This document shows, in pieces, positions 15,762 to 35,751 of a stretch of 64,000 nt of DNA. The first letter of the stretch is position 1; the number at the start of each line of letters is the position of its first letter. Made by a program: the position numbers and the translations under genes. Location: contig JAPLVF010000013.1 of NCBI GenBank assembly GCA_026397255.1, forward strand, positions 251,532 to 315,531. Direction: 5' to 3'. The DNA is from Candidatus Beckwithbacteria bacterium (GTDB lineage Bacteria > Patescibacteriota > Microgenomatia > UBA1400 > CG1-02-47-37). The notes beneath the pieces were generated by a model, which saw only the letters and a program-made list of their open reading frames with translations, had not been told where the DNA came from and ran no database searches.

Positions 15762-17204
15762 ATGAAAAAGATTATTGTAATCGCGATTTTTATTCTAGCC
15801 TTGGGGTTGAGAGTTTATAAATTGAGTTTGAGCCCGCCGGGATTGTATGCCGATGAGGCGTCCATCGGTTACAATGCCTACTCTATCTTGAAAACTGGGA
15901 AGGATGAACATGGAGTTGCCTGGCCAATATTTTTCCAGGCCTTTGGTGATTATAAAAATCCGGTATTTATTTATTCTTTGGCGCCGCTAATCAAGCTAAA
16001 TGGTTTAAAACCAGAGACAATCCGCTTGGGAGCGGCTATCTGGGGCAGTCTGGCAATTCCCTTGTTAATGGCGGTGGCTTGGGCAGCGACGGCAAACTTT
16101 ACTTTAAGCTGTTTGGCTGGAGTAGTTTTGGCCTTAATGCCGTGGCACCTCCATTACAGCCGGCTAGGTTTTGAAGCGATTACTTTGCCAACCTTAATGC
16201 TTTTATCTTTATGGTTATTTCTTAAATGGCTAAAAAATAAAAAAATTCTCGCGGGGATCGCTTTGGCGCTAAGTTTATTTTTAATGTTTTACAGTTATAC
16301 CACTGCCCGCTTGTGGATGCCGCTATTGGGTTTGATTTTACTAATACTTTTTCGCAAACAACGGTTGAGTTTGACTAAAAAAATAGTTGTTTTTGATTCG
16401 CTGCTAATAATGTTTTTACCGCTTTTGATCTGGCTTAGACAATTTCCGGATAGTTTAACGGCACGGATGAATCAAATTGCCATTTGGGCAGATAAGCCCC
16501 CTTTGCAAAAAATGTGGCAACGTTTTTGGTCGACCTATGCCGGCCATTTTACTTTCAGCTGGCTTTTTTCCCGGGGCGACACAACCATCCGTCACTCCAG
16601 CGGCATCAGCTCAGAAATGCTGTTAAGTTTTGCCCCCTGGTTAATCATTGGTTTAATCATGCTAATAAAACAATGCCGCAAACAACCTTTTTGGCAGCTG
16701 ACCTTAATTATGATCGGCCTATTCCCGTTAGCGGCGGCTTTAACCCAAACCAGCCCGATTGCCACCAGAACTTTACAAGCGACCCCATTTTTCAGCCTGG
16801 CAATTGCTTGGGGAATAATAAAATTAAAAAAGCCGTTGTTGATTATTTTGGCCTTGATAATTATCGGGTTGGAGTTCGGCCGTTATTACCGGGATTTAAT
16901 TTATTTTTATCCAAAACGGGTGAGTCAACCGTGGGATGGTTTTGATAGCCAACTGGGCCCAGCCATTAAAACGGCTTACCAGAAAAGCCAAGAACAAAAA
17001 AAGCCATTATTTTTATCTAGTAAAATCGAGCAAGCTTATATTCAGGGTTTGTTTTTTACCCAAGCTGATCCCCGGCTCTGGCAGACAAAACATCAGACTC
17101 CATTTACGGTAGCTAAGTTTAAGGCAGTTAAAGCTGGTGAGATATGGGTGATTACCCGAGACGAATGTCCGCAAAAAGATAAAGATTATTGCGTTTTATT
17201 CTGA
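15762..17204 (+). CDS. GT-C fold glycosyltransferase, ArnT/PMT (GT39/GT83)-like.
   Basis: N-terminal loop YADEASIGYNAYSILKTGKDEHGVAWPIFF carries a DE motif and basic loop as in ArnT/PMT. About 12 TM helices and a C-terminal soluble domain. Confidence 0.65.
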   Translation: MKKIIVIAIFILALGLRVYKLSLSPPGLYADEASIGYNAYSILKTGKDEHGVAWPIFFQAFGDYKNPVFIYSLAPLIKLNGLKPETIRLGAAIWGSLAIPLLMAVAWAATANFTLSCLAGVVLALMPWHLHYSRLGFEAITLPTLMLLSLWLFLKWLKNKKILAGIALALSLFLMFYSYTTARLWMPLLGLILLILFRKQRLSLTKKIVVFDSLLIMFLPLLIWLRQFPDSLTARMNQIAIWADKPPLQKMWQRFWSTYAGHFTFSWLFSRGDTTIRHSSGISSEMLLSFAPWLIIGLIMLIKQCRKQPFWQLTLIMIGLFPLAAALTQTSPIATRTLQATPFFSLAIAWGIIKLKKPLLIILALIIIGLEFGRYYRDLIYFYPKRVSQPWDGFDSQLGPAIKTAYQKSQEQKKPLFLSSKIEQAYIQGLFFTQADPRLWQTKHQTPFTVAKFKAVKAGEIWVITRDECPQKDKDYCVLF

Positions 17205-18235
17205 TAAAGAAGTTCGGAAACGTAAGAATAGACAGACTGCCAGTTATTGTTAACCGGCAACAAGACCCACTGGCCGTAAAGACTACTGGGCGGATTGTAT
17301 AAAAGAGCGGGAATATCTTCGCTGCTGCTGCCTTGGTCAACGATCCCGGTGCGCAGACTGGAAGATTTAACTCTTAAAACCAGCTTAACTAAATCAATAT
17401 AGCTAGAGGTAGAAAGATCGGTTTTGACAGCATGCTTAAATTCTTGGTAAAGAGCTTTAAGCTTGGCAGGATTTAATAAAACGGAGGGTGATAACACTTT
17501 GTCTTTGAAGGCCAATAAAACCAATTGCTGGCGTTGGGCCCGGGCATAATCACTCCCTTCCTCTCCCTGGGAATAGCGGGAACGGACATATTTTAACGCC
17601 AGAGAACCATCCATGTGCTGTTGGCCGGGAGAAAAGGTTAAGGCTTCGTAGCGGCTGGATTCGGGTTCGGCGGTTTCTTTGCCCGGAACCGGATACTGCG
17701 GGTCGGTAAAACCATGAAGAACATTAAGATCAATTCCGCCCACAATATCGATGGCTCTTTCAAAACCGGAGAAATCCAGAAGAACAGCGTAATGGACCGG
17801 CTGGTTAATAATCTCGGAAACAGCACTTTTAGCCAAAACCAGGCCGCCGCCCAACTGCTTGGCTTCACCAAATTCGTAGGCAGTATTAATTTTAGCGGAT
17901 AGGGATTCTATCCAAATATCGCGCGGCAAAGAAATAAGAACCGTATCCGAGTGAGTTAAATTAACAGAAATAAACATAATACTGTCGGTTAAGTCGGCGC
18001 CGGGATGATCGCCGCCGCCAATACCCAGAAGCAAAAAGTTGGTGCGGCCGCGAAAAGAATTAAGCTGAGTAATGGCCGGATTAATCAGAGAAAAAATTTT
18101 AGTCAGCGGCTTGGTTTTCGGGATAAACCAGATAAAAAATAGAATGATTAAACTAATAACCGCTAAATAAAAAACCGGCCGGAGAAAGAGAATAAATTGG
18201 TAAGTACGACGTTTTAATTTAGGCACTAAAGACAT
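17186..18235 (-). CDS. LytR-CpsA-Psr (LCP) family glycopolymer phosphotransferase.
   Basis: N-terminal TM, then LLLGIGGGDHPGADLTDSIMFISVNL...LISLPRDIW... The LCP core motif is present. Confidence 0.8.
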   Translation of the reverse strand: MSLVPKLKRRTYQFILFLRPVFYLAVISLIILFFIWFIPKTKPLTKIFSLINPAITQLNSFRGRTNFLLLGIGGGDHPGADLTDSIMFISVNLTHSDTVLISLPRDIWIESLSAKINTAYEFGEAKQLGGGLVLAKSAVSEIINQPVHYAVLLDFSGFERAIDIVGGIDLNVLHGFTDPQYPVPGKETAEPESSRYEALTFSPGQQHMDGSLALKYVRSRYSQGEEGSDYARAQRQQLVLLAFKDKVLSPSVLLNPAKLKALYQEFKHAVKTDLSTSSYIDLVKLVLRVKSSSLRTGIVDQGSSSEDIPALLYNPPSSLYGQWVLLPVNNNWQSVYSYVSELLYQNKTQ

Positions 18236-18249: not shown

Positions 18250-19989
18250 ATGAACCTAAACCAGCAACAAAAAAAGGCAGTGGAGTTTAAGGACGGTCCC
18301 TTATTAATTTTAGCGGGGGCCGGATCAGGGAAAACCCGGGCACTAACCTATCGGGCGGCTTATTTAATTAAAGAAAAAGGGATTGATCCCCAACGATTAC
18401 TATTAGTGACTTTTACCAATAAAGCCGCCAAGGAAATGAAAGAACGGGTCAATAAATTAATCGGCGCTAACCTGCCCTGGGCAGGAACATTCCACGGTTT
18501 TTGCGCCCGGATATTAAGAATTGACGGGCAGGCCATAAACTTACCAAAAAATTTTGTAATTTTTGACGAAGATGATTCTTTGGCAACAATTAAACAGGCA
18601 ATGGATAATTTAAAAATAGACAATAAGCTTTACCGGAAAAACAATATTAAGGCCTGTATTTCGGCAGCCAAAAACGAGTTAATTAACAGTCTTGAATATT
18701 CACAATTAGCCCGCGGAGTTTTTGGAGAAACGGTGGCTAAGGTTTTCCGTGAGTACCAAAGACTGTTGAAAGAATATCAAGCCCTGGATTTTGATGACTT
18801 ATTAATGTTAGGGGTAAAACTATTAAAAGAAAGCGGACCGGTAGCCAAAAAATACCAAGAAAAATTCCAATACGTGTTAGTAGATGAGTACCAAGATACC
18901 AACAAGGCCCAGTATGAATTAACCAAGGCATTGGTAAAAAAATGGCGTAATTTAACGGCGGTCGGCGATTTTTCCCAAAGTATTTACTCATGGCGGGGAG
19001 CAGATTTTAGAAATCTGAATAATCTTCAGGTTGATTTTCCGGATTTAAAAATTATTAACTTGGAACAAAATTACCGCTCGACTAAAAATATTTTGGACGC
19101 GGCTAATCAAGTAATCAGTAAAAACAAATCCCACCCGATTTTAAAACTTTGGGCCAACAGCCAAGAGGGCCCAAAAATAAGAATTTTTGAGGCTGGTGAC
19201 GAAAAGGAAGAAGCGGCGTTTATTGCTAAAGAAGTAAAAAAATTAAAATATAAAGATTGCGCGGTTTTATACCGAACCAATGCCCAGTCAAGAACAATTG
19301 AAGAGGCGTTTTTAAAAATTGGCATTCCTTATGTTTTAGTGGGCGGAGTAAAATTTTACTCGAGAAAAGAAATTAAAGATTGCTTGGCTTATCTAAGGTT
19401 TTTGGTGAACCCAAAAGACAAGGTTAGTTTTGACCGAATTGTTAAACTGGGGAAAAAACAATTGGACAAATTTCTGGAATGGAAAAGGCCAACATATTTA
19501 ACGACCAGGAAAATTTTAGAAAAAATTTTAGAAATTACCGCATATTTAAAAAGATTTGACGAGAAAGACGAAGAAGATTTAGAAAGACTAGAAAATATTA
19601 AAGAATTAATGAGTGTGGCGGAAGAATACAGCGACTTAAATGAGTTTTTGCAAAATACGGCTTTGGTGGAAGAGGGAGATTCAATAAAAGAAAATAAAAA
19701 CGCTGTCACCCTAATGACCTTGCATGCCTCTAAGGGATTGGAGTTTAAAAATGTGTTTATGATCGGAATGGAAGAAGGCCTATTCCCCCACGCCCGGTCG
19801 ATGATGAACCGAGACGAAATGGAGGAAGAAAGACGGCTTTGCTATGTGGGGATGACCAGGACAAAAGAAAATTTATTTTTTTCTTATGCCCGGAAAAGAC
19901 TATATTTTGGTTTCTTAGGCAGTAACGCCGTCAGCCGCTTCTTGGGCGATATTGAGGAAAATTTGCTAGAATCAATTAATGATTATTAG
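18250..19989 (+). CDS. uvrD: UvrD/PcrA-family DNA helicase, short form (579 aa).
   Basis: Walker A AGAGSGKTRALTYR, motif II VLVDEYQDTN, and YRSTKNIL. The C-terminal region is shorter than in canonical UvrD. Confidence 0.85.
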   Translation: MNLNQQQKKAVEFKDGPLLILAGAGSGKTRALTYRAAYLIKEKGIDPQRLLLVTFTNKAAKEMKERVNKLIGANLPWAGTFHGFCARILRIDGQAINLPKNFVIFDEDDSLATIKQAMDNLKIDNKLYRKNNIKACISAAKNELINSLEYSQLARGVFGETVAKVFREYQRLLKEYQALDFDDLLMLGVKLLKESGPVAKKYQEKFQYVLVDEYQDTNKAQYELTKALVKKWRNLTAVGDFSQSIYSWRGADFRNLNNLQVDFPDLKIINLEQNYRSTKNILDAANQVISKNKSHPILKLWANSQEGPKIRIFEAGDEKEEAAFIAKEVKKLKYKDCAVLYRTNAQSRTIEEAFLKIGIPYVLVGGVKFYSRKEIKDCLAYLRFLVNPKDKVSFDRIVKLGKKQLDKFLEWKRPTYLTTRKILEKILEITAYLKRFDEKDEEDLERLENIKELMSVAEEYSDLNEFLQNTALVEEGDSIKENKNAVTLMTLHASKGLEFKNVFMIGMEEGLFPHARSMMNRDEMEEERRLCYVGMTRTKENLFFSYARKRLYFGFLGSNAVSRFLGDIEENLLESINDY

Positions 19990-21016: not shown

Positions 21017-21825
21017 AGGAAACGGACTTAAGACAAAGCCGGGAATATGCTCAATATATGAAGGCACTGGGCTGGCAGACAGAAGCAGGGGCATTGATTA
21101 AAAAACTACCATTTGTCCCCTGGTCATTTATTAAAATTCAACGGCAAAAACGGAAAATCGATTTTGATAAAATGGCGAAAAAATATCGGGCGCTGCAAAT
21201 TAAAATTGAGCCCCCTTGGGGTGATAAAACCGATTACGGTAAGTTTGGTTTTAGGCCGGATAATTCACCGATGCTGCCGACAAAAACGACTTGGCTGGAT
21301 TTAACCAAAAGCGAAAGGCAATTATTGAAAGAAATGCATTACAAAACAAGATATAACATTAAGAAATTTTCAATCCGCCAGCTGGCGGACAGGTTTTCAA
21401 TGATAAGTGGGGATAAAATAACAGAAAATCAACTACGGGAATTTTATGAGATTTACAGAAAAAATTACCAGAAACAAAAATTCTGGGGGTTAAACTTTAA
21501 TCAATTAAAGTGTTTATTAAAGGCGTTTAAGTTAAAAAGTTATTTGTTGACGATAAAAAACTTAGGTGGGTTAATTATTTTAGTCCACAACAGTGTGGTT
21601 TACTATTCCCATAATGCCAGCACTCAGGAAGGCAGACAAAAATTTGCGCCGACAATTTTAATTTGGCAGGCAATTAAGTTAGCGAAAAAATTGTGTTTAA
21701 AAAGATTTGATTTTGAAGGAATTAATGACAAACGCTGGCCCGGCTTTACCAGGTTTAAAAGAAGTTTCGGCGGAAAAGAGATAGAATATAGAGGTAGTTT
21801 AAGTAAATGGTATTTATGTATTTAG
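21013..21825 (+). CDS. FemAB/FemX-family aminoacyltransferase, second and shorter tandem paralog.
   Basis: VVYYSHNASTQEGRQKFAPTILIWQAIKLAKKLCLKRFDFEGI. A 4-nt overlap with the upstream paralog indicates an operon. Confidence 0.6.
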   Translation: MKETDLRQSREYAQYMKALGWQTEAGALIKKLPFVPWSFIKIQRQKRKIDFDKMAKKYRALQIKIEPPWGDKTDYGKFGFRPDNSPMLPTKTTWLDLTKSERQLLKEMHYKTRYNIKKFSIRQLADRFSMISGDKITENQLREFYEIYRKNYQKQKFWGLNFNQLKCLLKAFKLKSYLLTIKNLGGLIILVHNSVVYYSHNASTQEGRQKFAPTILIWQAIKLAKKLCLKRFDFEGINDKRWPGFTRFKRSFGGKEIEYRGSLSKWYLCI

Positions 21826-22271
21826 CCTTGGAAAATATCCGCAGTCTTTATAATGTCGGGGCGATTTTCCGGACAGCCAGTTTTTTTGGGATAAAACATG
21901 TTTTATTGGTTGGGTATTCGGGTAGAAAGGCGGCTGGTCTTAATGAGTTGCACGAAAAAGTGAAAAAGACGGCCTTAGGAACGGAAAAAGATCTGGAAAT
22001 TAAATTTTTAAAAAATTCTCAAGAATTAATTAAGTTTAGTCGGGATAACAAATTAAAAATAATCGCGATTGAACAGGATAAAAATAGCGTGGCGATTGAC
22101 CACTGGCAGCCAAAGAAAAATTCAGTGCTTGTCCTGGGTAATGAAGTTAACGGGGTGAGTAAGGAAGTTTTGGCCGCGGCCGATGAAGTTGTGGAAATCC
22201 CCCGGTTGGGCAAAAAAGGGTCGTTAAATGTCAGCGTCGCGGCAGGAATTATCTTAGGCAGATGCTTGTAG
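21807..22271 (+). CDS. SpoU/TrmH-family RNA 2'-O-methyltransferase (SPOUT fold, TrmL-size).
   Basis: NVGAIFRTASFFGI...LVLGNEVNGVSKEVLAAADEVVEIPRLGKKGSLNVSVAAGIILG. SpoU motifs 1-3 are present. Confidence 0.75.
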   Translation: MVFMYLALENIRSLYNVGAIFRTASFFGIKHVLLVGYSGRKAAGLNELHEKVKKTALGTEKDLEIKFLKNSQELIKFSRDNKLKIIAIEQDKNSVAIDHWQPKKNSVLVLGNEVNGVSKEVLAAADEVVEIPRLGKKGSLNVSVAAGIILGRCL

Positions 22272-22895
22272 ATATGGATCAAGTTTAGCAGCAATAGCAC
22301 TGGTGTCTGGTGATTTTTTAAAGTAACCAATTAGTTGTCTCACATCGGAATTCTCTAGTTGTTTTGTAGCTGTTTCAAAAAGTCTTCTCCCCATAGATTC
22401 TTCTGGACTGTCTTCTAGGCTCGTGCCGACATTTAAAGCGCATAATAAATTAAACCCTTCAGGAGTACTATATGCTTTGTCTGCATCCCACCCTTTAACG
22501 TCAAGTCCTAGAAATTCTTCAATTTTTTCTGATAATTTTCCGCCTGCTTCTACTGAGTTTAGGTGTTGAGTTAAACGATCATGCAGTCTTTCGTCAAAAA
22601 GAATGTTAAGACCATTACCTCTAAGATAACCTTTATAAAGCTCTGTCGATGGGTTTTCTGACTTAGGCAAAGTAGCTAAGGATACACCAAAATTAAAGGC
22701 TTCTTCAGGATTTTTAGAAATTATTTCCTGTAAAAACCCGTCATTTACTATCCAGGCTTGAATGGCAGCTTTAAGATTATGATTAGCCTCGTGATGAGTC
22801 CCGATTAATGAAACTAAAAGAGACCTAATTTCTGGCCGTTGCTCAACTGGAATATCTTTTATATCCTGAAAGATCGCTTCAACTAATTCAGTCAT
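22254..22895 (-). CDS. Hypothetical protein with atypically low GC and unusual codon usage. It is the last gene of the rmuC / helicase-nuclease operon.
   Basis: 213-aa ORF. Third positions are visibly A/T-rich compared with its neighbours. I recognise no motifs. Confidence 0.45.
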   Translation of the reverse strand: MTELVEAIFQDIKDIPVEQRPEIRSLLVSLIGTHHEANHNLKAAIQAWIVNDGFLQEIISKNPEEAFNFGVSLATLPKSENPSTELYKGYLRGNGLNILFDERLHDRLTQHLNSVEAGGKLSEKIEEFLGLDVKGWDADKAYSTPEGFNLLCALNVGTSLEDSPEESMGRRLFETATKQLENSDVRQLIGYFKKSPDTSAIAAKLDPYLQASA

Positions 22896-22911
22896 AAGTT
22901 GTTGTATTATA

Positions 22912-25875
22912 TCACTTGATTAACTCCAGCTGTTTGGTTTTGGGGAGGCCGTCGGGCCAACAGTGGCGCTGAAATTCACAGCGGACACACTGGTGGTAAT
23001 CAGTGGTGCGAATAAAGTTAAGGGCGCGAATTTCTTTCATGGCGCTAATAATGGTGGCGCGTAAATCTTTTAAGTCATCATCGGAAATTTTAAAAGATTC
23101 CTGCCGAAACTTACCGCTTTGTCGGTTAGGCTCGACAAAATCAATTTCTGCTTCGGTCACTTCCAGGCGGAAAGTTTGATCAAGTTTAGTTAACAGCTTG
23201 TAAAAAACCAGCTGGCGGTAATAGTCGCCTTGGGAGTTTTTAGTCTTGCCCATAATGGCGTTACGGGTTTGGGGTTGGCCGGTTTTGTAGTCAACCACCC
23301 GGACAGTTTTATTAACCATGTCAAGCGGGTCAATCCGGTCAATTTTCCCGGTTAAAGGAATATCTCCCAAAAAGGTCTTTGACCAACCGTAACCAAAAAA
23401 TTTTTCAGTAAACATGGCTTTAATAAAATCATCCTGATAATAATCATAATAAGCGGTTAGAATTTTTGCCCCCTGTTTTAAGCGGCTGGCAGATTCGTTT
23501 TTATCCAACACTTCTGCTTCCAAGGCTTTAGTAAATTTATCCAAGAGGAATTGTTTGCTTGGGTGTTTGTCGTCGAGAATAAACTGACGGTGAAAATTTT
23601 CCAAGGCTTTGTGAACGGCCGTACCAAAAGACATAAAAGAAGCCTTGGCCCGGGGAACGCGAATCAAGTTATTAAGTTTAAACTTATAGGCACAGGTAAG
23701 AAAAGTGTTTAAAGCGGTAGGAGAAAGCTTAAAGTTTTTAACCAAATTGGCTAAAAATTCTTTTTCAGAAAAAGTTAGAGTTGGCTGACTAACCGGCTCT
23801 AAAAATTGACGCAAAATTCTGGCTTGATCTTGATTTAATTTTGGCAAAATTATTTTTTTAAATTTATCGGGAATTTCTGAGATAAACATGGTGGGGACAG
23901 CCTCGCTGACATGGCCGCTATTGGCATAGCGTTCGGCAAAAGAAATAAAGATTTTTTTCTTGGCCCGGGTAAGACTGACGTAAAATAAACGACGTTCATC
24001 TTCATTTTTTTCTTTTTTTTCTAAATCCGAATGGGTTAAGATTCCCGCGGGCAACTTAATTAATTCACGGGTCCGATTATTCCCCCATTTGCCATCAATG
24101 GCCTTAATAATAAAAACATAGTTCCATTCTTTGCCTTTGGCTTTATGGGCGGTGCTCAGAGTAACGGCGTTGGTTTTAATATCCAAATCAGCGGCGGAAA
24201 TTTTTAAGTGATTAATTTCCATCAACTCCAATGATTTTAAAAATGAGTCCAGCTTTAAACTATGATCAGCATTATTAAGGCGCTTAATGGCGCTGAAAAA
24301 AGAATTAAGAATATTTAATTTAGCGGTGGCGTCAGGTTGGCTCAAAATCCAATCAAGAAAACCGCTTTGTTTAATTACCGTCTCGAAAAACTGAGAAAAA
24401 GTTAACTGGCTGTTTAATTCCTGCCACTGGCTTAATTGTTTCACAAACTCAATTAAACGTTCCGGTTGAGCCAAGCTTAAAGAGTGAAAATTGTCGGATA
24501 AAATCACGTCCACTAAAGACAAATTGGCCTTGCTGGCACGACGGCTGAGCTTAAGAATATCAAGAGAGTTAAATTTTAAAAATTCGTAGTGAAGCAGGGT
24601 GAATAAGTCCAGGTCTTCCAAGTTTTTGGGGCTTAAATTAATCGCTTTTAAAAGAGTTAACAACTTAACAATGGTCGGATCCTCCAGAACGTTGCCGCCG
24701 CCCTCAATGTCCGTAGGAATGCCCAACTTTGAAAAAAGATCGGCAATGTCCAGGGCGTCGGCATTATGACGGTATAAAACAGCAATTTCTTCCGGTTTAA
24801 CTCCTTGGTTAATTAATTTTTTAATCCGGCGGCCGGCCCAGTAAAGCTCGACTATTTCCGAAGGCAAACGCACTAGATTAATTGGTAATTCCGGAGAAAC
24901 TTTTTGGCTAATTAACTTGGATTTAGCGGTTTTTACTACGTCCTCGATTTTTAAATGATTTTTTTGAATTAAATGAAAACTGGTATCCAAAATTGTCTGA
25001 GTCGAACGGTAGTTTTGATCCAAGCTAATAATTTTGGCCTGAGGGTAAGTCTTGGTAAAAGAAACAATATTTTCCAGAGAAGCACCCTGAAAGCGAAAGA
25101 TGGATTGATTGCTGTCGCCGACGACAAAAACATTAGCTTGATCCCCCCAGTAAGAAGCCAATAAATCAACGACTTGATTTTGGGCTGAGTTCGTATCCTG
25201 GTATTCATCGACCAAGAAATATTGCAATCGCTCCTGATAGATACGTAGCAAGGTTTGATCGCTTTTAAAGGCAGCGACAACCAGGTTAATCATGTCTTCA
25301 AAATCATAGCGGCCACGATCGATTAGAGCCTGCTGATACAAAGAATAAATTTTTAACAGCTCCGGCAATTTTTTATCTTTCTCGCTGGAAATGATTGATT
25401 TAAATTTTTCCGGGGAGACCGCTTCCCGCTTTAAATCCTGGATGGCTTTAATTAAGGCCGGCGTGTAATAAAAAGGTGTGTTGACAGGCTTTAAATAATC
25501 AAAGTTGTGGGAAGTTAAGATTTCGTGAAAGATTTCCACGCGCTCCAAATCGGACAAAGGTTCCATCTGGGGCGAAATGACGAAATGGTCGGGAAATTCC
25601 TGGATTACTGAAGAGCAAAAAGAATGAAAGGTAAAAATATTAACGTAATAAGCAGTCGGGCCAATGGTTTGTGTCAGACGTTCACGCATGGCCTTGGCAC
25701 CGGATTCGGTAAAGGTTAGGGCTAAAATCGCATCGGGGGAAGTATCGGTCTTTTTCAAAATATTGGCGATCCGCTCGGCAATGATTTGAGTTTTGCCGGT
25801 TCCCGGACCGGCAATCACCATAACCGGGCCTTCAATTGTGTCGACGGCCAACTGCTGAGAGGAATTAAGCTTCAT
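22912..25875 (-). CDS. Single-chain UvrD-like helicase fused to a C-terminal PD-(D/E)XK nuclease with a Cas4/AddB-type Fe-S Cys cluster.
   Basis: Walker A AGPGTGKTQ, motif II LVDEYQDTN and YRSTQTIL (helicase). C-terminal RVVDYKTG (nuclease Lys motif) plus Cys spaced as C...C-x2-C-x5-C (TCAYKF...CVRCEFQRHC). Confidence 0.8.
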   Translation of the reverse strand: MKLNSSQQLAVDTIEGPVMVIAGPGTGKTQIIAERIANILKKTDTSPDAILALTFTESGAKAMRERLTQTIGPTAYYVNIFTFHSFCSSVIQEFPDHFVISPQMEPLSDLERVEIFHEILTSHNFDYLKPVNTPFYYTPALIKAIQDLKREAVSPEKFKSIISSEKDKKLPELLKIYSLYQQALIDRGRYDFEDMINLVVAAFKSDQTLLRIYQERLQYFLVDEYQDTNSAQNQVVDLLASYWGDQANVFVVGDSNQSIFRFQGASLENIVSFTKTYPQAKIISLDQNYRSTQTILDTSFHLIQKNHLKIEDVVKTAKSKLISQKVSPELPINLVRLPSEIVELYWAGRRIKKLINQGVKPEEIAVLYRHNADALDIADLFSKLGIPTDIEGGGNVLEDPTIVKLLTLLKAINLSPKNLEDLDLFTLLHYEFLKFNSLDILKLSRRASKANLSLVDVILSDNFHSLSLAQPERLIEFVKQLSQWQELNSQLTFSQFFETVIKQSGFLDWILSQPDATAKLNILNSFFSAIKRLNNADHSLKLDSFLKSLELMEINHLKISAADLDIKTNAVTLSTAHKAKGKEWNYVFIIKAIDGKWGNNRTRELIKLPAGILTHSDLEKKEKNEDERRLFYVSLTRAKKKIFISFAERYANSGHVSEAVPTMFISEIPDKFKKIILPKLNQDQARILRQFLEPVSQPTLTFSEKEFLANLVKNFKLSPTALNTFLTCAYKFKLNNLIRVPRAKASFMSFGTAVHKALENFHRQFILDDKHPSKQFLLDKFTKALEAEVLDKNESASRLKQGAKILTAYYDYYQDDFIKAMFTEKFFGYGWSKTFLGDIPLTGKIDRIDPLDMVNKTVRVVDYKTGQPQTRNAIMGKTKNSQGDYYRQLVFYKLLTKLDQTFRLEVTEAEIDFVEPNRQSGKFRQESFKISDDDLKDLRATIISAMKEIRALNFIRTTDYHQCVRCEFQRHCWPDGLPKTKQLELIK

Positions 25876-26891
25876 TTTAATTTGGGGATGTCGTCATCGG
25901 GAGTTAATTCACGGCTGGTACGAAGTTTTTGGCCAATGGAATTGTAGGCAGAATTGACCTCGGAAAATTTATTGTGGGCGTTAAGAATATGGCTGCCAAG
26001 AGTCACCAGTTTTTCTTCCACTTTTTCATAGTCGGTTTGGATGGCCCGCAAGAGGCTAAAAATTTCCCGGGATTTATGTTCGATTTTTTTACCCTCAAAA
26101 GATAAAAGAATCATCTGCAAATGGGCATAAAGGGTCGAGGGGGAAACCGGAAAAATCCGATTGCGTTTGGCAAAATCCATCACCTCAGTCAAGTTAACTA
26201 GTTCGTAATAAACCGCTTCGGAGGGAACATACATCAGGGCAAAATCCATGGTGCCTTCTTCCGGCAAAATATATTTTTGGGAAATGGCTTTAATATGTTT
26301 TTTAACATCGGCACTAAAGGCCCGGCGGGCTATTTCCTGATCGGATTTATCTTTAGCCTTAACAATTCTTTGAAAGTTTTCCATGGGGAATTTGGAGTCA
26401 ATTGGCAAAATACCAGCATCGGTTTGAATGGCGGCATCGACTTTGTCACCGGACTTAAAAGAATACTGCAAATGAAAACTTTTTTTGGGAAACATCTGGC
26501 AAATTAAGTCTTTTAAAACCTGCTCACCGATATTCCCCCTTAATTTGGGTGAGCGTAAAAATTCGTTTAATTCTTTCATGGAGCGGGAAACCTCGGTAAA
26601 CTCACCGGCTTCTTTTTGCAAACCGCCGATCACTTCCGCAGCTTTGTCTAAGCGTTTATTTAAAGTGTGGGAAGATTGTTGAAGCGTGTCAATCATGTGC
26701 TGATTGGAAGTTTGCAAAGAATCGGACAAAACTCTTTGTAAATCTTTAATGTCTTTTTGGGTGGATTTGGCCCATTCCATTAAAGTTAGGTCCTCTTTTT
26801 TTCTGGTTAAAAACCAAATAACGACAGCAAAGCCGATAACAATTAAGGCGGTAATTAAATAAATCTCTGGAGTCATGATTAATTCTAACAT
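25872..26891 (-). CDS. rmuC: DNA recombination protein RmuC.
   Basis: N-terminal TM plus coiled coil. ...LPIDSKFPMENF...DFALMYVPSEAVYYE matches the RmuC core. A 4-nt overlap with the downstream helicase-nuclease gene indicates an operon. Confidence 0.7.
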   Translation of the reverse strand: MLELIMTPEIYLITALIVIGFAVVIWFLTRKKEDLTLMEWAKSTQKDIKDLQRVLSDSLQTSNQHMIDTLQQSSHTLNKRLDKAAEVIGGLQKEAGEFTEVSRSMKELNEFLRSPKLRGNIGEQVLKDLICQMFPKKSFHLQYSFKSGDKVDAAIQTDAGILPIDSKFPMENFQRIVKAKDKSDQEIARRAFSADVKKHIKAISQKYILPEEGTMDFALMYVPSEAVYYELVNLTEVMDFAKRNRIFPVSPSTLYAHLQMILLSFEGKKIEHKSREIFSLLRAIQTDYEKVEEKLVTLGSHILNAHNKFSEVNSAYNSIGQKLRTSRELTPDDDIPKLK

Positions 26892-26906: not shown

Positions 26907-27233
26907 ATGATTAAGAGGCGTAAAAACTATCTACCGACATTGCTGTTAGTTTTAATTCTGTGGGCGTTATTGGGTTTAATGCTTTATTTTGTCGAGCCGG
27001 CAATGGTAAAGGATATTTTAATACCGGGGTTGTATTTACCATTTTTCTTGTTGTTTTTTCCGGCGAGCAGTTTAACGTTAGGAATAATTTTTAACAACAG
27101 CCTGAGGGGGCTTTTGTTGGCCATTGGAATAACTGCCTGGTTAATTTTAAAAGTTTATCAACTGGATAATTGGCTGAATATAATTTTAATTTCGGGAATA
27201 ATAATAACAGTTGACAGATATCTGTCCACATAG
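26907..27233 (+). CDS. Small membrane protein, hypothetical.
   Basis: 108 aa with 3 TM helices. Confidence 0.4.
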   Translation: MIKRRKNYLPTLLLVLILWALLGLMLYFVEPAMVKDILIPGLYLPFFLLFFPASSLTLGIIFNNSLRGLLLAIGITAWLILKVYQLDNWLNIILISGIIITVDRYLST

Positions 27234-29123: not shown

Positions 29124-29945
29124 ATGTTTGTCGATACGCATTGCCATTTGAATTTTGAGGCGTTTGCCAAAGACTGGCAGAGCGTGGTGGAAGAAGCCAA
29201 GCAATCAGGTGTGAGAAAAATGATCCTGGTCGGGACAGATATTAAAACCTGTCAAAAAGCCATCGAGATGGCGAGGGAAACGGCTGAGCTTTACGCCACC
29301 ATCGGCTTTCATCCCCATCACGTTAAGTCTTTGGTCGGTCTTGCCTACGCCCGAGTCCAAATTTGCCAAATTACTGATCAATTAAAAAAACTGGGGAAAA
29401 ATAAAAAAGTGGTGGCTATTGGTGAGTGCGGTCTGGATTATCATGTTTATCGGAAAACAAAATATTCTTCGGAGGTAACTGAAGAGGAAAAAACTTTGCA
29501 AAAACAATTGTTCGGGATGCAAACCCAGTTGGCAAAAGAGTTAAAATTACCGCTCATTATTCATAACCGCGAGGCCGGGGAGGAAACCCTGGATACTTTA
29601 AATCATTTTTGCAAGAATGACGGCAAATACCCCCGGGGTGTATTTCACTGTATCTCCGGCAGTAAAAAGTTGTTGAAAAAAATTCTGGAAATGGGATTTT
29701 TTGTTGGCGTGGATGGAAATATTACTTACAGCCAAGAAGTGCAGGAGTTAGCCAAAAATGCGCCCCTGGACAGAATTTTACTGGAAACTGACGCACCATA
29801 TTTATCGCCCAAACACGACGGCAGCCGGAATTTTCCCCAAAGTGTTAAAATAGTCGCACAGTTTTTAGCGAAACTAAAAGGCACTTCAATTAATCAAATT
29901 GAGACGCAAACCACTAAAAACGCAGAAAAACTGTTTAAGTTATGA
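29124..29945 (+). CDS. tatD: TatD-family metal-dependent DNase/hydrolase.
   Basis: MFVDTHCHLNF at the N-terminus, GECGLDY, and a C-terminal ETDAPYL motif. Confidence 0.85.
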   Translation: MFVDTHCHLNFEAFAKDWQSVVEEAKQSGVRKMILVGTDIKTCQKAIEMARETAELYATIGFHPHHVKSLVGLAYARVQICQITDQLKKLGKNKKVVAIGECGLDYHVYRKTKYSSEVTEEEKTLQKQLFGMQTQLAKELKLPLIIHNREAGEETLDTLNHFCKNDGKYPRGVFHCISGSKKLLKKILEMGFFVGVDGNITYSQEVQELAKNAPLDRILLETDAPYLSPKHDGSRNFPQSVKIVAQFLAKLKGTSINQIETQTTKNAEKLFKL

Positions 29946-31429
29946 GGGGTTGGCTAGTAAACCACGAAAAAAAAGTCTTGCGGGCTTTAGAAATGATGCC
30001 GGGGTTAATTTCCTGGTCGTTGATTATCTTCCCTATCTGGGGGGCTTTTTTAGTCCCGACTCTGGTCGCATATTATATTATTGCTTTTGATGTTTACTGG
30101 CTTTACCGGTCAATTTGGACAGCCATGATGTCACTGTTGGCCCATTTTAGATTAAAAGCAGCTCAGGAATTTGACTGGTTAAAGGAAACCAAGTCGTTTT
30201 TGGATTGGCGGAAAGTTCATCACATTGTGGTAATCCCGACTTATAAAGAACCCGGGCATATTTTGGAAAGAACTTTAACGGCTTTGGCCAAACAAACATA
30301 CCCACGAGAAAATTTAACGGTGGTCATGGCCTTTGAGGAAAGAGAAGGAGAAGAAGCCAGACAAAAAGCAAAACATTTGCAAAGAACTTACGGAAAAGAA
30401 TTTGGAAATTTTTTAATAACTTTCCATCCGGATATCAGGGGCGAAGTTAAAGGGAAATCTTCCAATACAGCCTGGGGGGCAAAAATAGCCAAAAAAATGT
30501 TAGTGGATAAGCAAAAAGCGGACATTGATTATGTGACGATTACTTCCAATGATGCCGACGTCATCCTCCACCGACAATATTTTGCCTACTTAACCTTTAA
30601 ATTTTTAGATGACCCGAGGCGGTATCAAAAAATCTGGCAATCGGCCATACAGTTTTATAACAATATTTGGCGATTGCCGGCAATCACCCGAGCCTACAAC
30701 CGGGTGTCCAGCGTGGTTCAGACGGGCGTGTTAATGCGGCGTGACCGGCTGATGAATTTTTCCACCTATTCCATCAGTTTAAAACTGGTGGATAAAGTCG
30801 GCTATTGGGATGTGGACGTCATCCCGGAAGATTACCGGATGTTTTTTAAGATTTTTTATGCAATTAGGGGTAAGGTGGAAGTAGATCCAATCTTTTTACC
30901 TTCTTTTTGCGACGCGGCCGAATCAACCAGCTGGTGGAAAACAATGGTAAACCAATACGAACAGGTGAAACGCTGGTCTTGGGGGGTCAGCGACGATGCT
31001 TACATTATTTATAAATGGCTGACGGTGCCGAAAATGCCTTTTTGGGAAAAAACAATTAGGTCTTTATATGTGATTAAGGATCATATTTTGTGGCCGGTAA
31101 ACTGGTTCGCGATTACCCTGGGGGCTAATATTCCTCCACTTTTGAATAAAGAGTTTGGGCGAACGATTATCGGGAAAACCTTACCGCAAGTGTCTTCAGG
31201 AATATTAACTTTGTCTTTGGTGGCCTTTGCGGCAATATTTTTCGTTGACTGGCAAGAAAAACCAAAAGCCCCCAAAGAATTAGCCTTGTGGAAAAAGATT
31301 TTCAGCCCGCTGGAATTTGTTTTGCTGCCGGTGGTGGGATTTTTCTTTACCGCCCTGCCGGGATTAGACGCACATACGCGACTGCTTTTGGGAAGATATC
31401 TGGAGTACCGGGTAACAGAAAAAGTGTAG
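29942..31429 (+). CDS. Processive GT2-family membrane glycosyltransferase (cellulose/chitin/PNAG-synthase-like).
   Basis: VVIPTYKEPG (DXD region), ITSNDADVI, and QxxRW motif QYEQVKRWSWG. TM helices at both ends. Confidence 0.7.
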   Translation: MRGWLVNHEKKVLRALEMMPGLISWSLIIFPIWGAFLVPTLVAYYIIAFDVYWLYRSIWTAMMSLLAHFRLKAAQEFDWLKETKSFLDWRKVHHIVVIPTYKEPGHILERTLTALAKQTYPRENLTVVMAFEEREGEEARQKAKHLQRTYGKEFGNFLITFHPDIRGEVKGKSSNTAWGAKIAKKMLVDKQKADIDYVTITSNDADVILHRQYFAYLTFKFLDDPRRYQKIWQSAIQFYNNIWRLPAITRAYNRVSSVVQTGVLMRRDRLMNFSTYSISLKLVDKVGYWDVDVIPEDYRMFFKIFYAIRGKVEVDPIFLPSFCDAAESTSWWKTMVNQYEQVKRWSWGVSDDAYIIYKWLTVPKMPFWEKTIRSLYVIKDHILWPVNWFAITLGANIPPLLNKEFGRTIIGKTLPQVSSGILTLSLVAFAAIFFVDWQEKPKAPKELALWKKIFSPLEFVLLPVVGFFFTALPGLDAHTRLLLGRYLEYRVTEKV

Positions 31430-31448
31430 GGGTAATGTACAATAAGCT

Positions 31449-32873
31449 ATGTGGCAGAAGTTTGTTCATTGGATTGAGAAAAATGAGGGCTTAATTTTAA
31501 TTTTATTGCTGGTGATAATTTTACGGATCCCCTCTTTATACGAACCATATTGGTACGGCGACGAGGGAATTTACCTGACCTTAGGGCAAGCGTTAAGAAA
31601 GGGGTTGGTGTGGTACCGGGATATTCACGATAATAAGCCGCCGATGCTTTACCTAGTGGCGGCTATGGCCGGTAATTTATTTTATTTTAGGTTAATTCTG
31701 CTGGTTTGGTTTGAGGCAACGGTGGTGGCCTTCTTCAGATTAATGCAGTTAATGCTGCCTGGCAAAAAAGCGGCCTGGTATTGGTCAACTTTGATGATGA
31801 TTGGCTTAATCACTTTGGTTGAAGGAAATATTGCCAACGCGGAAATTTTTATGGCGTTACCCACAATTATCGGATTGCTGTTGGTTTTTGGGGGAAGACG
31901 GTTGTTAGCGGCAGGCTGTTTTTTCTCAATGGCGTTTTTATTTAAAGTGCCGGCAGGATTTGATTTTGGGGCGGTTTGGCTCTGGCTAATAATACTTGAA
32001 AAAAACAGACTTAAAAATGTTTTCCGGCTGTCACTGGGATTTATTTTGCCAATTTTGGGGACGATGGGGTATTACGCAATTGCCGGCGGCTTGGAGCCTT
32101 ATGTCCGTTCGGCGCTCTTTCAAAATATCGGCTATTTAAGTTCCTGGAACAATAGCCAATCCGGTCTGGGCGGGCGGGCACTAATCCTGATCGTTTTGCT
32201 GGGGATAATCTTTATTTTAGCTAAAAAATTCAAACTAAAGACCAAGCTTAGCCTCACAATGATGTGGACGGTGATGGCTTTATTTGGGGCATTATTATCA
32301 GCCAGACCATATCCACATTACTTAATTCAACCAGCTATACCGGGAGCAATTTTAATCAGTTGGTTTATTTTTAGCCAAAAGAGGGTTGTCAGGCTGATGA
32401 TTTTGGGCTTGGCTGGTGTCACGATTTTGGCATATTGGCAAATCCATTTTTGGGGTTACCCGATTTTGGCCTATTATAAAAATTTCGGTAATTACGTTTT
32501 AAAGAAAAAATCAACCGAGGATTATCGGAATTGGTTTGATGCAAAAGTTAATCAGAATTATAAAGTGGCAGCAGAGATAAAGGAAAAAACCTTAAAAGAA
32601 GAGCGCATTTTTATTTGGGGAGACGAACCGGGGATTTACGCCTTAGCGGAAAGGCTGCCCATTGGCCGCTACACGGTTGCCTATCATATAATTGATTTTA
32701 ACGGCTTTAAAGAAACCATAGAGGCATGGGATAAACAACCGCCGAAAGTGGTGGTGGTAATGGAATATGAAAGCAAAAAATTTCCGGAAATGGATAGCCG
32801 ACTAAGCACTAATTATGTTTTAACTAGTGAAATTAACCAGGCATTAATTTACCGCCGAGTCGAAACAAAATGA
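31449..32873 (+). CDS. Polytopic membrane protein, GT-C-like putative glycosyltransferase.
   Basis: Early loop YGDEGIYLTLGQAL (DE motif). About 12 TM helices and a C-terminal soluble domain. Confidence 0.5.
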   Translation: MWQKFVHWIEKNEGLILILLLVIILRIPSLYEPYWYGDEGIYLTLGQALRKGLVWYRDIHDNKPPMLYLVAAMAGNLFYFRLILLVWFEATVVAFFRLMQLMLPGKKAAWYWSTLMMIGLITLVEGNIANAEIFMALPTIIGLLLVFGGRRLLAAGCFFSMAFLFKVPAGFDFGAVWLWLIILEKNRLKNVFRLSLGFILPILGTMGYYAIAGGLEPYVRSALFQNIGYLSSWNNSQSGLGGRALILIVLLGIIFILAKKFKLKTKLSLTMMWTVMALFGALLSARPYPHYLIQPAIPGAILISWFIFSQKRVVRLMILGLAGVTILAYWQIHFWGYPILAYYKNFGNYVLKKKSTEDYRNWFDAKVNQNYKVAAEIKEKTLKEERIFIWGDEPGIYALAERLPIGRYTVAYHIIDFNGFKETIEAWDKQPPKVVVVMEYESKKFPEMDSRLSTNYVLTSEINQALIYRRVETK

Positions 32874-33253
32874 AAACACTGAAGCTGGATTTCAAGACAG
32901 TAAAAAAACAAGTGGATACTTTGGCTTCCGACAAGGCTGCAAAAAATGGTTTAAGGCTGCTTTTTGCGGCTCTGGGGGTGAGTTGGTTATGGCTAGGGGG
33001 CTGGTGGCATAAATTACCGCCGGAAGTGCCGTTGTTTTATAGCCTGGCTTATGGTGAGGGCCGGCTGGCCGACAGATGGGAATTATGGTTGTTGCCGGCC
33101 TTGATGCTCTTAGTTGATTTAATCTCGATTAAAGCAGCAGGAAATTTAATTGAAAAAGACAAATTACTGGCGCAAATATTAGTGTGGATAGCGGCAATCA
33201 TAACGACCATGATGTTAATTGCTTTGGTAAAAATAGTTTTTTTAATTACCTGA
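32870..33253 (+). CDS. Small membrane protein, hypothetical.
   Basis: 127 aa with 3-4 TM helices. Overlaps both neighbouring genes by 4 nt, so it sits within an operon. Confidence 0.4.
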   Translation: MKTLKLDFKTVKKQVDTLASDKAAKNGLRLLFAALGVSWLWLGGWWHKLPPEVPLFYSLAYGEGRLADRWELWLLPALMLLVDLISIKAAGNLIEKDKLLAQILVWIAAIITTMMLIALVKIVFLIT

Positions 33254-33256
33254 TTT

Positions 33257-34351
33257 ATGCCCCTGATTCAATTAATTAAACCGTTAATTGTGGCTGTAAT
33301 TTTAAGTTGGCTAAGTACCGGGGCAGTAATTAAAATTTATAAAAAATTGAATTGGCTGGATGATCCCAAAAAACAAAAACACCCTAAGGTGGTGCATCAA
33401 TATCCGGTGCCAAGGGGTGGCGGTTTAGCTATTGCTTTGGCCATTATTAGCTGCAGTTTATTATTTCTGCCCTTAGATAAACATTTGACCGGTATTCTTT
33501 TGGGAACAGTGGTTTTGGCAGTCTTGGGGACAATTGACGATGTAAAAAACTTAAATCCATATAAACGGTTACTTTGGGGTTTCGTCGCGGCCGGCATAGT
33601 GGTAGCGGCCGGCATTGGCGTACCTTATATTTCCAACCCCTTGAAGGCCGGGGCAGTGATTGATTTATCCCAACCACAAGTCCAGGTTTTCTTTTTCGGA
33701 AAATTAAGAACCATCTGGGTTTTAGCTGACATCATGGCTTTAATCTGGATTGTAGGAACAATGAATTTTGTCAATTGGGCTAAGGGGGTAGACGGACAGT
33801 TGCCGGGAATTGTGGTGATCGCCGGAATTATTGTCGGTTTGTTAAGCTTAAAGTTTGCCGGGGATGTGACCCAATGGCCGGTAATTGTTTTGGCTTTGAT
33901 TTTGGCCGGAGCTTATTTAGGATTTTTAGTTTGGAATTTTTATCCGCAGAAGATTATGCCGGGGTACGGCGGCGGGGCTTTGGCCGGTTATTTTTTGGCA
34001 GTGTTGGCGATTTTATCAGGAGCAAAAGTGGCCACGGCAATTTTGGTTTTAGGCGTACCGATGATTGATGCGATTTACAGTGTTTTAAGGCGGGTTTTGG
34101 CCGGAAAATCTCCGGTTTGGGGCGACCGGGGACACTTGCACCACAAATTAATGGATTTAGGTTGGGGGAAAAGGCGAATTGCTGTATTTTATTGGCTGGT
34201 ATCCGGGGTTTTGGGTTGGTTAGCCCTGAAATTGAATAGTCAATATAAACTCTATACAATGATTTTATTAGGAGTAATTATCGGAGGAGCGCTTTTATGG
34301 TTGAATATGGCTACCTACTTCTTAAAGAAGCCCGGCCAAGACAAATCCTGA
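33257..34351 (+). CDS. Polyprenyl-phosphate N-acetylhexosamine-1-phosphate transferase of the MraY/WecA family (Pfam Glycos_transf_4).
   Basis: NFVNWAKGVDGQLPG resembles the N-x-x-N-x-x-D-G-x-D-G-L motif. 10-11 TM helices. No cell-division genes nearby, so a WecA-like initiating transferase is favoured over MraY. Confidence 0.65.
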   Translation: MPLIQLIKPLIVAVILSWLSTGAVIKIYKKLNWLDDPKKQKHPKVVHQYPVPRGGGLAIALAIISCSLLFLPLDKHLTGILLGTVVLAVLGTIDDVKNLNPYKRLLWGFVAAGIVVAAGIGVPYISNPLKAGAVIDLSQPQVQVFFFGKLRTIWVLADIMALIWIVGTMNFVNWAKGVDGQLPGIVVIAGIIVGLLSLKFAGDVTQWPVIVLALILAGAYLGFLVWNFYPQKIMPGYGGGALAGYFLAVLAILSGAKVATAILVLGVPMIDAIYSVLRRVLAGKSPVWGDRGHLHHKLMDLGWGKRRIAVFYWLVSGVLGWLALKLNSQYKLYTMILLGVIIGGALLWLNMATYFLKKPGQDKS

Positions 34352-35223
34352 AAAATTTAGCCTTGTTCACCGGTTTAATATTTTCCGGATGGCTGTTTAT
34401 CGCGGAAAAGTTTTGGATAGTGGCCATGTCTTTTGTAGTTTTTTCAATTCTGACCGGGTCGATTTATATTTTCAACGACATTATTGATATTAAGGCTGAT
34501 AAAAACCATCCGTTTAAAAAATTCCGGCCCTTGGCGAGCGGTAAACTGCCGATTCCCATCGCCTTATTTTTTAGTCTGGCGGGAATATTAATCAGCCTAA
34601 CCTTGGGTTGGTCACTGTCTTATTTTTTATTTTTAATTATGATCGGCTATATAGGATTGCAGCTACTATATACTTTGAGTTTTAAACATAAGCCTATTCT
34701 TGACGTGATGACGATTGCGATGGGGTTTGTGATCAGGGTTTACGGCGGCGCCCTGGTGATCAGCGCCCATTTGAATGTATGGCTGCTCTTATGTATTATT
34801 TCTTTCTCATTATTTTTGGCGATCGGAAAGAGGCGAAGTGAATTGACTTTATTACAAGGGCAGTCGGCCAGCCGCCTGGTTTTAGGACGATACCCAGAGA
34901 AACTACTGGATTTGTATACGGCGATGTTCGCCAATACCACCTGGTTGACTTACGCTCTATTTACTTTTATGTTTCCGGCGTTTGAATTTAAGGGCAGAGT
35001 CCTAACTTTGTTATCAACCCTACCCCACACTTTCCGCTCAGAAAAATGGCTAATGGCCACAATTCCTCTGGTAATTTACGGAGTTATGCGTTATTTGCAA
35101 TTGATTTACGAGCGTAATGAAGGCGAATCGCCGGAAAAAATTCTCACTTCAGACAAAGGAATGTTAATCACGGTAGTGATTTGGGGATTGATGACAATCG
35201 GAATTCTTTACGGGTTAGGATAA
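34297..35223 (+). CDS. UbiA-superfamily prenyl-phosphate transferase, decaprenyl-phosphate phosphoribosyltransferase (DPPR synthase)-like.
   Basis: FNDIIDIKADKNHPFKKFRPLASG (Asp-rich motif 1 plus an HPxKxxRPxAxG-like stretch). 8-9 TM helices. The 5' end overlaps the upstream gene by 55 nt, so the true start may be downstream. Confidence 0.65.
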   Translation: MVEYGYLLLKEARPRQILKNLALFTGLIFSGWLFIAEKFWIVAMSFVVFSILTGSIYIFNDIIDIKADKNHPFKKFRPLASGKLPIPIALFFSLAGILISLTLGWSLSYFLFLIMIGYIGLQLLYTLSFKHKPILDVMTIAMGFVIRVYGGALVISAHLNVWLLLCIISFSLFLAIGKRRSELTLLQGQSASRLVLGRYPEKLLDLYTAMFANTTWLTYALFTFMFPAFEFKGRVLTLLSTLPHTFRSEKWLMATIPLVIYGVMRYLQLIYERNEGESPEKILTSDKGMLITVVIWGLMTIGILYGLG

Positions 35224-35710: not shown

Positions 35711-35751
35711 ACTATTCTCCTTGGGCAGGAAAATTAATAAATCGTGTTTTC

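Follow-up and report, generated by a model that had tools for sequence, protein, structure and literature searches.

What do three adjacent minus-strand genes of Candidatus Beckwithbacteria bacterium, coding for an RmuC-family nuclease, a helicase fused to a nuclease and a small protein with A/T-rich codons, do for the cell, and do they act together? The part of the genome analysed is a 64-kb stretch of contig JAPLVF010000013.1 (assembly GCA_026397255.1), referred to below as the window. A preliminary description had read the three genes as one operon that specifies a single-chain, AddAB-like machine for processing DNA ends, with a possibly foreign accessory gene. The three open reading frames (ORFs) lie on the minus strand where it had placed them, at 25872-26891 (339 aa), 22912-25875 (987 aa) and 22254-22895 (213 aa). 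We interpret the locus differently, with a confidence that is about even: rmuC and the helicase-nuclease gene would form a housekeeping module for repair or recombination, and the third gene would be unrelated to them, independently transcribed and hypervariable.

The 987-aa helicase-nuclease (22912..25875, minus strand) combines a UvrD/PcrA-type superfamily 1A (SF1A) motor with a Cas4/AddB-type Fe-S PD-(D/E)XK nuclease. The Pfam matches are UvrD-helicase (PF00580, 7e-67), UvrD_C (PF13361, 6e-39) and PDDEXK_1 (PF12705, 3.4e-30). The helicase part, residues 1-672 (23860..25875, minus strand), carries the Walker A sequence GPGTGKT and the motif DEYQD, and it matches the PDB structure of PcrA (1pjr, aa 3-671) at 1.5e-84. 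The nuclease domain, residues 716-972 (22960..23730, minus strand), gives the PDDEXK_1 match. In an alignment of 50 helicase-nuclease homologues of 48-72% identity (alignment A3), the Walker A residues G23-T29 and the helicase residues D223-E-x-Q-D227 are invariant, and so are the nuclease residues D846, D862-Y-K864 and Q888xxxY892. Also invariant are four cysteines, C728, C963, C966 and C972 (C...Cx2Cx5C), a putative Fe-S site recognised at the level of the motif only. A second alignment (A2) likewise shows the nuclease residues and the cysteines without variation. An intact SF1 helicase joined to a PD-(D/E)XK nuclease with four cysteines, as first described, is therefore what the Pfam matches and the invariant motifs bear out. 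By sequence, the protein apparently joins an active-looking SF1A motor to an Fe-S-type nuclease. In Foldseek comparisons of an AlphaFold model (pLDDT 89, pTM 0.81) the motor matches PcrA, UvrD and Rep, and the full length aligns with AddA, AdnB, AddB, AdnA and RecB. A sequence-profile search found no solved structure for the nuclease domain.

The rmuC gene (25872..26891, minus strand) encodes a 339-aa PD-(D/E)XK nuclease. Its product matches the Pfam RmuC family (PF02646 / COG1322) at 3.7e-53 with 180.9 bits, against a gathering cut-off of 26, and so belongs to that family. The catalytic residues D152 and D165-x-K167 are kept in at least 17 of 18 aligned RmuC sequences from Patescibacteria and Acidobacteriota. 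A transmembrane helix at about residues 9-29 is predicted in the hydrophobic N-terminus, which reads IYLITALIVIGFAVVIWFL in the translation, and the protein has a coiled-coil region. A membrane helix at the N-terminus and a PD-(D/E)XK domain agree with the published description of the RmuC family (PMC1189080). The same family domain, membrane helix, coiled coil and nuclease fold are common to E. coli RmuC (YigN) and to the Shield effector ShdA. The Beckwithbacteria protein is however shorter than E. coli RmuC, scores only 39 bits against a cut-off of 810 with the RmuC equivalog model and is encoded outside any defence island.

The two genes share four bases. At 25872..25875 (minus strand) the stop codon TGA of rmuC overlaps the ATG of the helicase-nuclease gene as ATGA, read directly in the sequence ...aaattaaaATGAagctt, and an identical 4-nt overlap is present at 6986-6989 of a relative's locus, L002 (L-numbers designate loci of relatives, P-numbers homologous proteins from database searches). 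The overlap is a predicted translational coupling of rmuC to the helicase-nuclease gene. On this point the preliminary description holds, and the coupling recurs in other lineages. In addition, a 108-aa ORF without a family match (26907-27233, plus strand) diverges from rmuC 15 nt from its start, and L002 has a small divergent gene at the matching position.

The association of the two genes extends across phyla. A species-level genome scan (one genome per species) for the related nuclease domain yielded 80 loci, 79 of them with an identifiable nuclease-domain ORF, and the ORFs within 5 kb of the helicase-nuclease gene were clustered. RmuC is the commonest neighbour family in these 79 loci, and no other was present in more than one phylum. 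The rmuC gene precedes the helicase-nuclease gene, on the same strand, in the window, in L002, L011, L013 and L014, and in L055 (Gracilibacteria) and L060 (Peribacteria). In nine Acidobacteriota loci it directly follows that gene on the same strand, the two overlap by 4 nt in L069, and the gene order is hrcA-dnaJ-rsmE-helicase-nuclease-rmuC-thiolase. The opposite gene orders in Patescibacteria and Acidobacteriota suggest that the adjacency arose independently at least twice. In L060 a 346-aa ORF with no identity assigned (6578-7618, plus strand) stands between rmuC and the helicase-nuclease gene. The recurrent pairing of RmuC with a helicase-nuclease appears to be new; no prior report of RmuC coupled translationally to such a protein was found in the searchable literature. 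RmuC is widespread in bacteria, and the coupled, recurrent pairing points to a concrete partner for it.

The fusion itself is not new. UvrD-Cas4-like fusions, described by Hudaiberdiev et al. 2017 (PMC5704561), have the same architecture, an N-terminal UvrD-like SF1 helicase followed by a C-terminal PF12705 Cas4-like nuclease with a Cys cluster. They make up the largest pfam12705 branch and occur in many bacteria and archaea, either stand-alone in non-conserved contexts or beside Type III restriction-modification (R-M) or Dcm-Vsr genes. Judged by its architecture, the 987-aa protein fits this known but uncharacterised family. Current views are not overturned. What differs from the published contexts is the setting, where RmuC is the partner and the surroundings are housekeeping genes rather than Type III R-M or Dcm-Vsr genes.

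The likeness to AddAB needs to be stated with care. AddAB of Bacillus subtilis and other bacteria and AdnAB of mycobacteria have in common with the 987-aa protein a UvrD-like SF1A motor, RecB-family nucleases and a nuclease domain with an Fe-S 'staple'. Both are heterodimers of two paralogous long subunits, whereas here there is a single helicase-nuclease chain. According to two reports (PMC8789073; PMC3321194), the Fe-S nuclease of AddAB and AdnAB is carried by the subunit with the inactive motor, AddB in the one and AdnA in the other. The Beckwithbacteria chain has an active-looking motor and the Fe-S nuclease together, and its partner is an unrelated membrane-anchored nuclease. Because of this difference, the remark that features split between AddA and AddB are merged in one chain is a fair one. 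Counted over the pair, RmuC and the helicase-nuclease match AddAB in having two nucleases and a single active motor. The term AddAB-like is apt for the full-length fold, which aligns with AddA, AdnB, AddB and RecB, and fails for family membership: two NCBIfam AddA models give 142 bits (cut-off 708) and 121 bits (cut-off 861), the AddB model gives 38 (cut-off 486), and a single helicase-nuclease gene is flanked by rmuC and the 213-aa gene. AdnAB was also rejected, since the window holds no second motor-nuclease gene and its only other UvrD-family gene (18250-19989) lacks a nuclease domain. A Chi-recognition element is not known.

Like the 987-aa protein, RecB joins an SF1A 3'->5' motor to a C-terminal PD-(D/E)XK nuclease in one chain, and it is among the structural matches. 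It has however no Fe-S cluster, and its partners RecC and RecD are both absent from the window. With the recB model TIGR00609 the 987-aa protein reaches 108.8 bits, where the cut-off is 696, and the 43 window ORFs scanned against Pfam include no RecC or RecD domain, so RecBCD was rejected as well. The same 43 ORFs contain no RecBCD, AddAB or RecJ domain, as the preliminary description had noted for the window.

PcrA, UvrD and Rep are the best matches in sequence and structure for residues 3-672, but these helicases have no nuclease domain. The genome's PcrA orthologue is not the 987-aa protein, which reaches 369.8 bits against a cut-off of 911; a neighbouring gene 3 kb away (18250..19989, plus strand) encodes a 579-aa PcrA-like helicase with no nuclease domain that scores 703.8 bits with the NCBIfam PcrA model. 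The two proteins are 27% identical. With a better PcrA candidate nearby, the helicase-nuclease is best regarded as a dedicated paralogue. From the stretch that aligns to residues 427-500 of the helicase-nuclease, about 75 residues are missing in the 579-aa helicase. A short PcrA-like helicase is also found 3-4 kb from the helicase-nuclease in L010 (14576-16546) and L013 (13925-14374).

The distribution of the helicase-nuclease is broad. In the database search nearly all of the 8000 scored candidates have E <= 1e-30, a set that will include plain UvrD-type helicases; among the 120 matches listed, every one has the nuclease domain PF12705, and almost every one is full-length. Full-length homologues that are 47-71% identical come from Beckwithbacteria, Pacebacteria, WWE3 and unclassified Patescibacteria. 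Full-length proteins that are more distantly related are encoded in Saccharibacteria, Gracilibacteria, Peribacteria and Berkelbacteria, and full-length homologues of the same architecture in Bacteroidota, Omnitrophota, Planctomycetota and Acidobacteriota. The 80 scan loci span these eight groups together with Microgenomates and Paceibacterota, and the species-level scan also returned stand-alone nucleases of Corynebacterium. Two of the homologues, P0016 (1357 aa) and P0054 (1304 aa), are interrupted by an intein (PF14890).

The cysteines of the nuclease domain vary among these groups. The Cx2Cx5C motif is found in the window's clade, Omnitrophota, Gracilibacteria/Peribacteria and Acidobacteriota, and a Cx4-5Cx2C motif in Paceibacterota, Saccharibacteria and Bacteroidota. 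One clade of Patescibacteria (L016-L022, L024, L025, L028) has lost all the cysteines of the domain and kept the DxK motif. These variants in spacing and loss offer a natural series for probing the role of the Fe-S cluster. The idea that the Cys cluster predicts RmuC adjacency was dropped as a functional claim, because many clades differ in Cys spacing rather than lacking the cluster and the pattern tracks phylogeny. Seven of the records, L015, L016, L018, L020, L022, L024 and L028, are titled 'uncultured Pseudomonadales' or 'Methylococcaceae'. Their helicase-nucleases group with those of the Patescibacteria-labelled L019, L021 and L025, and for L016, L018, L024 and L028 the neighbouring genes do so too. 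On these sequence affinities the seven labels look wrong.

The third gene is of a different character. The 213-aa gene (22254..22895, minus strand) encodes an acidic protein (pI 4.87) predicted to fold as an all-alpha HEAT/ARM-like solenoid. The A/T-rich codon usage noticed earlier is confirmed by computation. Its GC content at third codon positions (GC3), 0.234, is lower than that of any other among 54 ORFs, for which the window mean is 0.442 (sd 0.055). An analytic z-score, in which the expectation combines the amino-acid composition of the gene with the codon usage of the window, gives an expected GC3 of 0.433 and z = -6.2; amino-acid composition is thus rejected as the cause of the observed 0.231. 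The protein is also the most acidic of the 50 window ORFs examined, where the median pI is 9.0. Purifying selection acts on the gene, with dN/dS of about 0.22 against two relatives.

A 16-nt gap separates the helicase-nuclease gene from the 213-aa gene, and the region between and around them includes an extended -10 element, TGATATAAT (22906..22914, minus strand), whose TGA is the stop codon of the helicase-nuclease gene and whose end is 10 nt away from the start codon of the 213-aa gene. All the other alleles, and more distant family members, have a TAnAAT or TATACT box 6-10 nt upstream of the ATG. Thus the 213-aa gene likely has its own promoter and a near-leaderless mRNA, as far as its upstream sequence can tell. 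The three-gene operon of the preliminary description is therefore secure only for rmuC and the helicase-nuclease gene. The same layout is frequent in the window: 14 of 50 genes have a TAnAAT box that begins within the range counted, 12-20 nt ahead of the start codon, mostly at about -12, for example upstream of 2051, 7069, 13133, 17186-18235 (minus strand), 19979, 27671, 29124, 42224-42835 (minus strand) and 50363-51431 (minus strand). A Shine-Dalgarno sequence, judged by eye from the upstream sequences, is rarely visible at these 14 genes. Together these features suggest that leaderless or near-leaderless mRNAs may be the norm for the first genes of operons in this Beckwithbacteria genome.

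The position of the 213-aa gene is stable and its sequence is not. The slot downstream of the helicase-nuclease gene is kept in five allelic lineages (the window, L009, L007/8, L002-6 and L090/91). Between L007 and L002, the 3' end of the helicase-nuclease gene and the spacer are 90-98% identical in nucleotides and the next gene, for a CDGSH protein, 97-100%, while the small coding sequence between them is only 47-57% identical. At the protein level, the C-terminus of the helicase-nuclease is 92% identical between L002 and L007 and the small protein 47%. The window and L009, a single short contig, show the reverse pattern. Here the central part of the small gene (about positions 296-775 of L009) is 87-97% identical and the flanks 53-82%, with the lowest values furthest from the gene. 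Independent assemblies carry the L002 and the L007 arrangements, which makes chimeras unlikely for that pair. By these comparisons the behaviour of the 213-aa gene is that of an allelic cassette, exchanged through recombination among related lineages, and it appears to be new. It offers a clean example of cassette replacement in an uncultivated lineage, in a family that is unannotated and comprises about 100 clusters.

The downstream edge of the cassette is marked by a convergent gene for a SpoU-type RNA methyltransferase (21807..22271, plus strand; SpoU_methylase, 8e-32), whose 3' end runs 18 nt into the 213-aa gene. In most relatives a 63-aa zf-CDGSH iron-sulfur gene lies just downstream of the small gene and convergent to it (minus strand; L002 at 10641-10832, L003, L004, L007, L008 and L091). 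It is 98% identical between L002 and L007 and is missing from the window and L009, where the SpoU methylase gene overlaps the small gene by the 18 nt. A metagenome scan for further alleles returned only two loci, both already in the set.

How foreign, then, is the tail gene? Its codons look foreign and it is exchanged horizontally, and to this extent the early label stands. GC3 is low in all five alleles, 0.22-0.30 against 0.43-0.49 in the neighbouring helicase genes, although dS is saturated; the bias is therefore long-lived and not the mark of a recent import. A recent foreign insertion is ruled out by the conserved position in five lineages, the purifying selection (dN/dS ~0.2) and the lasting low GC3. 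A phage origin is unsupported too. The family was found in no phage record or viral contig, BFVD gave no match at E <= 0.001 (best E 0.13), and PHROGs and the phage genomes gave no support.

The family of the 213-aa protein is larger than a word-indexed search suggests. That search gave four relatives, and a full profile search gave 103 cluster representatives, nearly all of 200-235 aa. The protein has no match in Pfam, NCBIfam, PADLOC or PHROGs, and none in the PDB by profile; 74 members of the family have no Pfam domain, one chance match aside, and a wider alignment of the family left no stretch conserved enough to search with. Profile and structure comparison, proposed earlier as a route to its function, thus yields a generic HEAT/ARM-like fold and neither a family match nor a functional clue. 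The likeness to HEAT/ARM-type proteins such as CIP2A, importins, TOG domains and AlkD/AlkF-like proteins is one of fold, not an indication of function. One member, P0154 (384 aa), has a C-terminal GNAT acetyltransferase domain (PF13302, 2.4e-16). In the other long members no additional domain is recognisable, and weak matches to THUMP and Tra1 give no consistent clue.

Distant members of the family occur in unrelated contexts: beside an IS200/605 transposase gene, inside an rpoBC-str region, near ychF-rpsF-ssb and, in a genome of 33% GC to which the composition of the gene is native, near genes for a resolvase, an AAA_21 ATPase and EcoRII. In L099 a member lies between FemAB and a UvrD-type helicase and is convergent with that helicase. 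No member of the family was found within 10 kb of a related nuclease domain in any of the 80 scan loci. The 213-aa protein is an acidic helical-repeat protein without a catalytic motif. We infer that it is a protein-binding accessory or a conflict-type factor rather than a dedicated helicase-nuclease subunit.

If rmuC and the helicase-nuclease gene do form a housekeeping repair module, the following mechanism can be envisaged. The motor would track 3'->5' on one strand, unwinding the duplex from an end, a nick or a branch, and the Fe-S nuclease would cut the unwound single strand. RmuC may add a second, perhaps structure-specific, nuclease, and the products would feed the RecA and RuvABC proteins. 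A helicase-nuclease retained across very small genomes could plausibly supply the end-processing step that is missing in Patescibacteria before RecA and RuvABC.

Several points weigh against this reading. In most other Patescibacteria loci, including that of the closest species representative, L010, RmuC is not within 10 kb of the helicase-nuclease, so the pairing is not obligatory. The cases of adjacency are clustered phylogenetically and perhaps represent two or three independent events. We infer, in addition, the strand polarity, the contact between RmuC and the helicase and the biological substrate. The literature yielded no experimental study of the UvrD-Cas4-like fusion family, and defence or ancillary roles have been predicted for it from the R-M and Dcm-Vsr contexts (PMC5704561). 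On a Hymenobacter plasmid (NZ_CP095057.1; L104, 5935-9132), a distant full-length homologue that is 28% identical has umuDC on one side and a BREX-1 system on the other. There is no terminator between the helicase-nuclease gene and the 213-aa gene, and read-through transcription into the latter is therefore likely. Finally, some link of the small gene to UvrD-family helicases is conceivable, because in one clade it is always beside the helicase-nuclease gene and because of the L099 case. The RmuC adjacency offers good but not overwhelming support for a functional partnership with the helicase-nuclease.

The main rival is a role in defence, in which the pair, with or without the small gene, would degrade invading phage or plasmid DNA and the small protein would serve as a sensor, decoy or immunity-like regulator. 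We regard this as unlikely, although the prediction made for the UvrD-Cas4 fusions and the BREX neighbour of the distant homologue both speak for it. RmuC domains act in Shield and accompany defence reverse transcriptases (PMC10270631), and the PADLOC model RTasRmuC gives a match at 6e-13; the locus, however, has no reverse transcriptase, methyltransferase or defence island near it and stands among housekeeping genes, 35 kb from dnaA. PADLOC GajB models match the helicase part, but these matches reflect generic UvrD similarity, and with no GajA (OLD/TOPRIM) partner in the locus the system is not a Gabija. The hypervariability and horizontal exchange of the adjoining gene are typical of conflict genes. 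The pair itself, by contrast, is well conserved between relatives (dN 0.13-0.21), the helicase-nuclease is conserved over many Patescibacteria lineages, with inteins in some homologues, and full-length relatives occur in only 3 of 72,556 plasmid records, all of them at most 31% identical.

That the three genes are one unit, with the acidic HEAT-like protein as a dedicated inhibitor or modulator of the helicase-nuclease or RmuC, perhaps DNA-mimic-like or Chi-like, seems to us distinctly unlikely. In the Beckwithbacteria-related clade the small gene is always directly downstream of the helicase-nuclease gene across the short, terminator-free gap, its product is the most acidic of the ORFs examined, and one family member is convergent with a UvrD-type helicase. 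Yet its divergence is uncoupled from that of the helicase-nuclease, as the L002/L007 comparison shows, it has its own promoter-like element, its family is absent from the scan loci and turns up in unrelated contexts, and its net charge, at about -12, is modest by the standards of DNA mimics. The earlier proposal of an inhibitor or modulator is not supported, as nothing ties the small gene's function to the helicase-nuclease. Bolder, and quite improbable, is the idea that RmuC and the Fe-S helicase-nuclease might be a membrane-tethered machine of one motor and two nucleases, equivalent to RecBCD and AddAB in Patescibacteria and part of the Acidobacteriota, with the hypervariable acidic gene a polymorphic decoy or inhibitor from an arms race over this hub of repair and immunity, comparable to the phage inhibitors of RecBCD. 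If it were true, RmuC would gain a biochemical role. Patescibacteria are widely thought to rely on scavenged nucleotides. A membrane-anchored RmuC and the helicase-nuclease might accordingly process imported DNA, for nucleotide salvage or for trimming before recombination, which we hold to be very improbable. The N-terminal transmembrane helix of RmuC (family description in PMC1189080), the lower transformation efficiency caused by the RmuC-domain protein ShdA (PMC10270631) and the retention of the helicase-nuclease in very small genomes fit this idea. It starts, however, from the membrane anchor alone, neither the window nor the related loci examined have competence genes (comEC, comEA, pilus genes) beside the pair, and the pairing is present also in free-living Acidobacteriota with large genomes.

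The wider setting of the pair is one of core functions. Its direct neighbours are FemAB, SpoU, MetRS and TatD, and the window contains groEL, lepA, murJ and tRNA synthetase genes. A search of the DNA-repair literature on the Candidate Phyla Radiation produced nothing usable. About 25 kb away from the pair, ruvC, ruvA and ruvB form one operon (49371-51431, minus strand). This operon, like the PcrA-like helicase gene and the -10 box of the 213-aa gene, had been missed by the preliminary description. The replication-origin region, with yidC at 59028-59816 and dnaA and dnaN at 60590-63297 (plus strand), lies about 35 kb from the locus. From about 12 kb onwards the cumulative GC skew climbs almost monotonically up to the window's end. 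In codon usage, the gene that deviates most within the window encodes a GT4 glycosyltransferase (36671-37933, plus strand; GC3 0.284 against 0.436 expected, z -6.7). The glycosyltransferase cluster that holds this gene (29942-41366) is probably a horizontally acquired surface-polysaccharide region.

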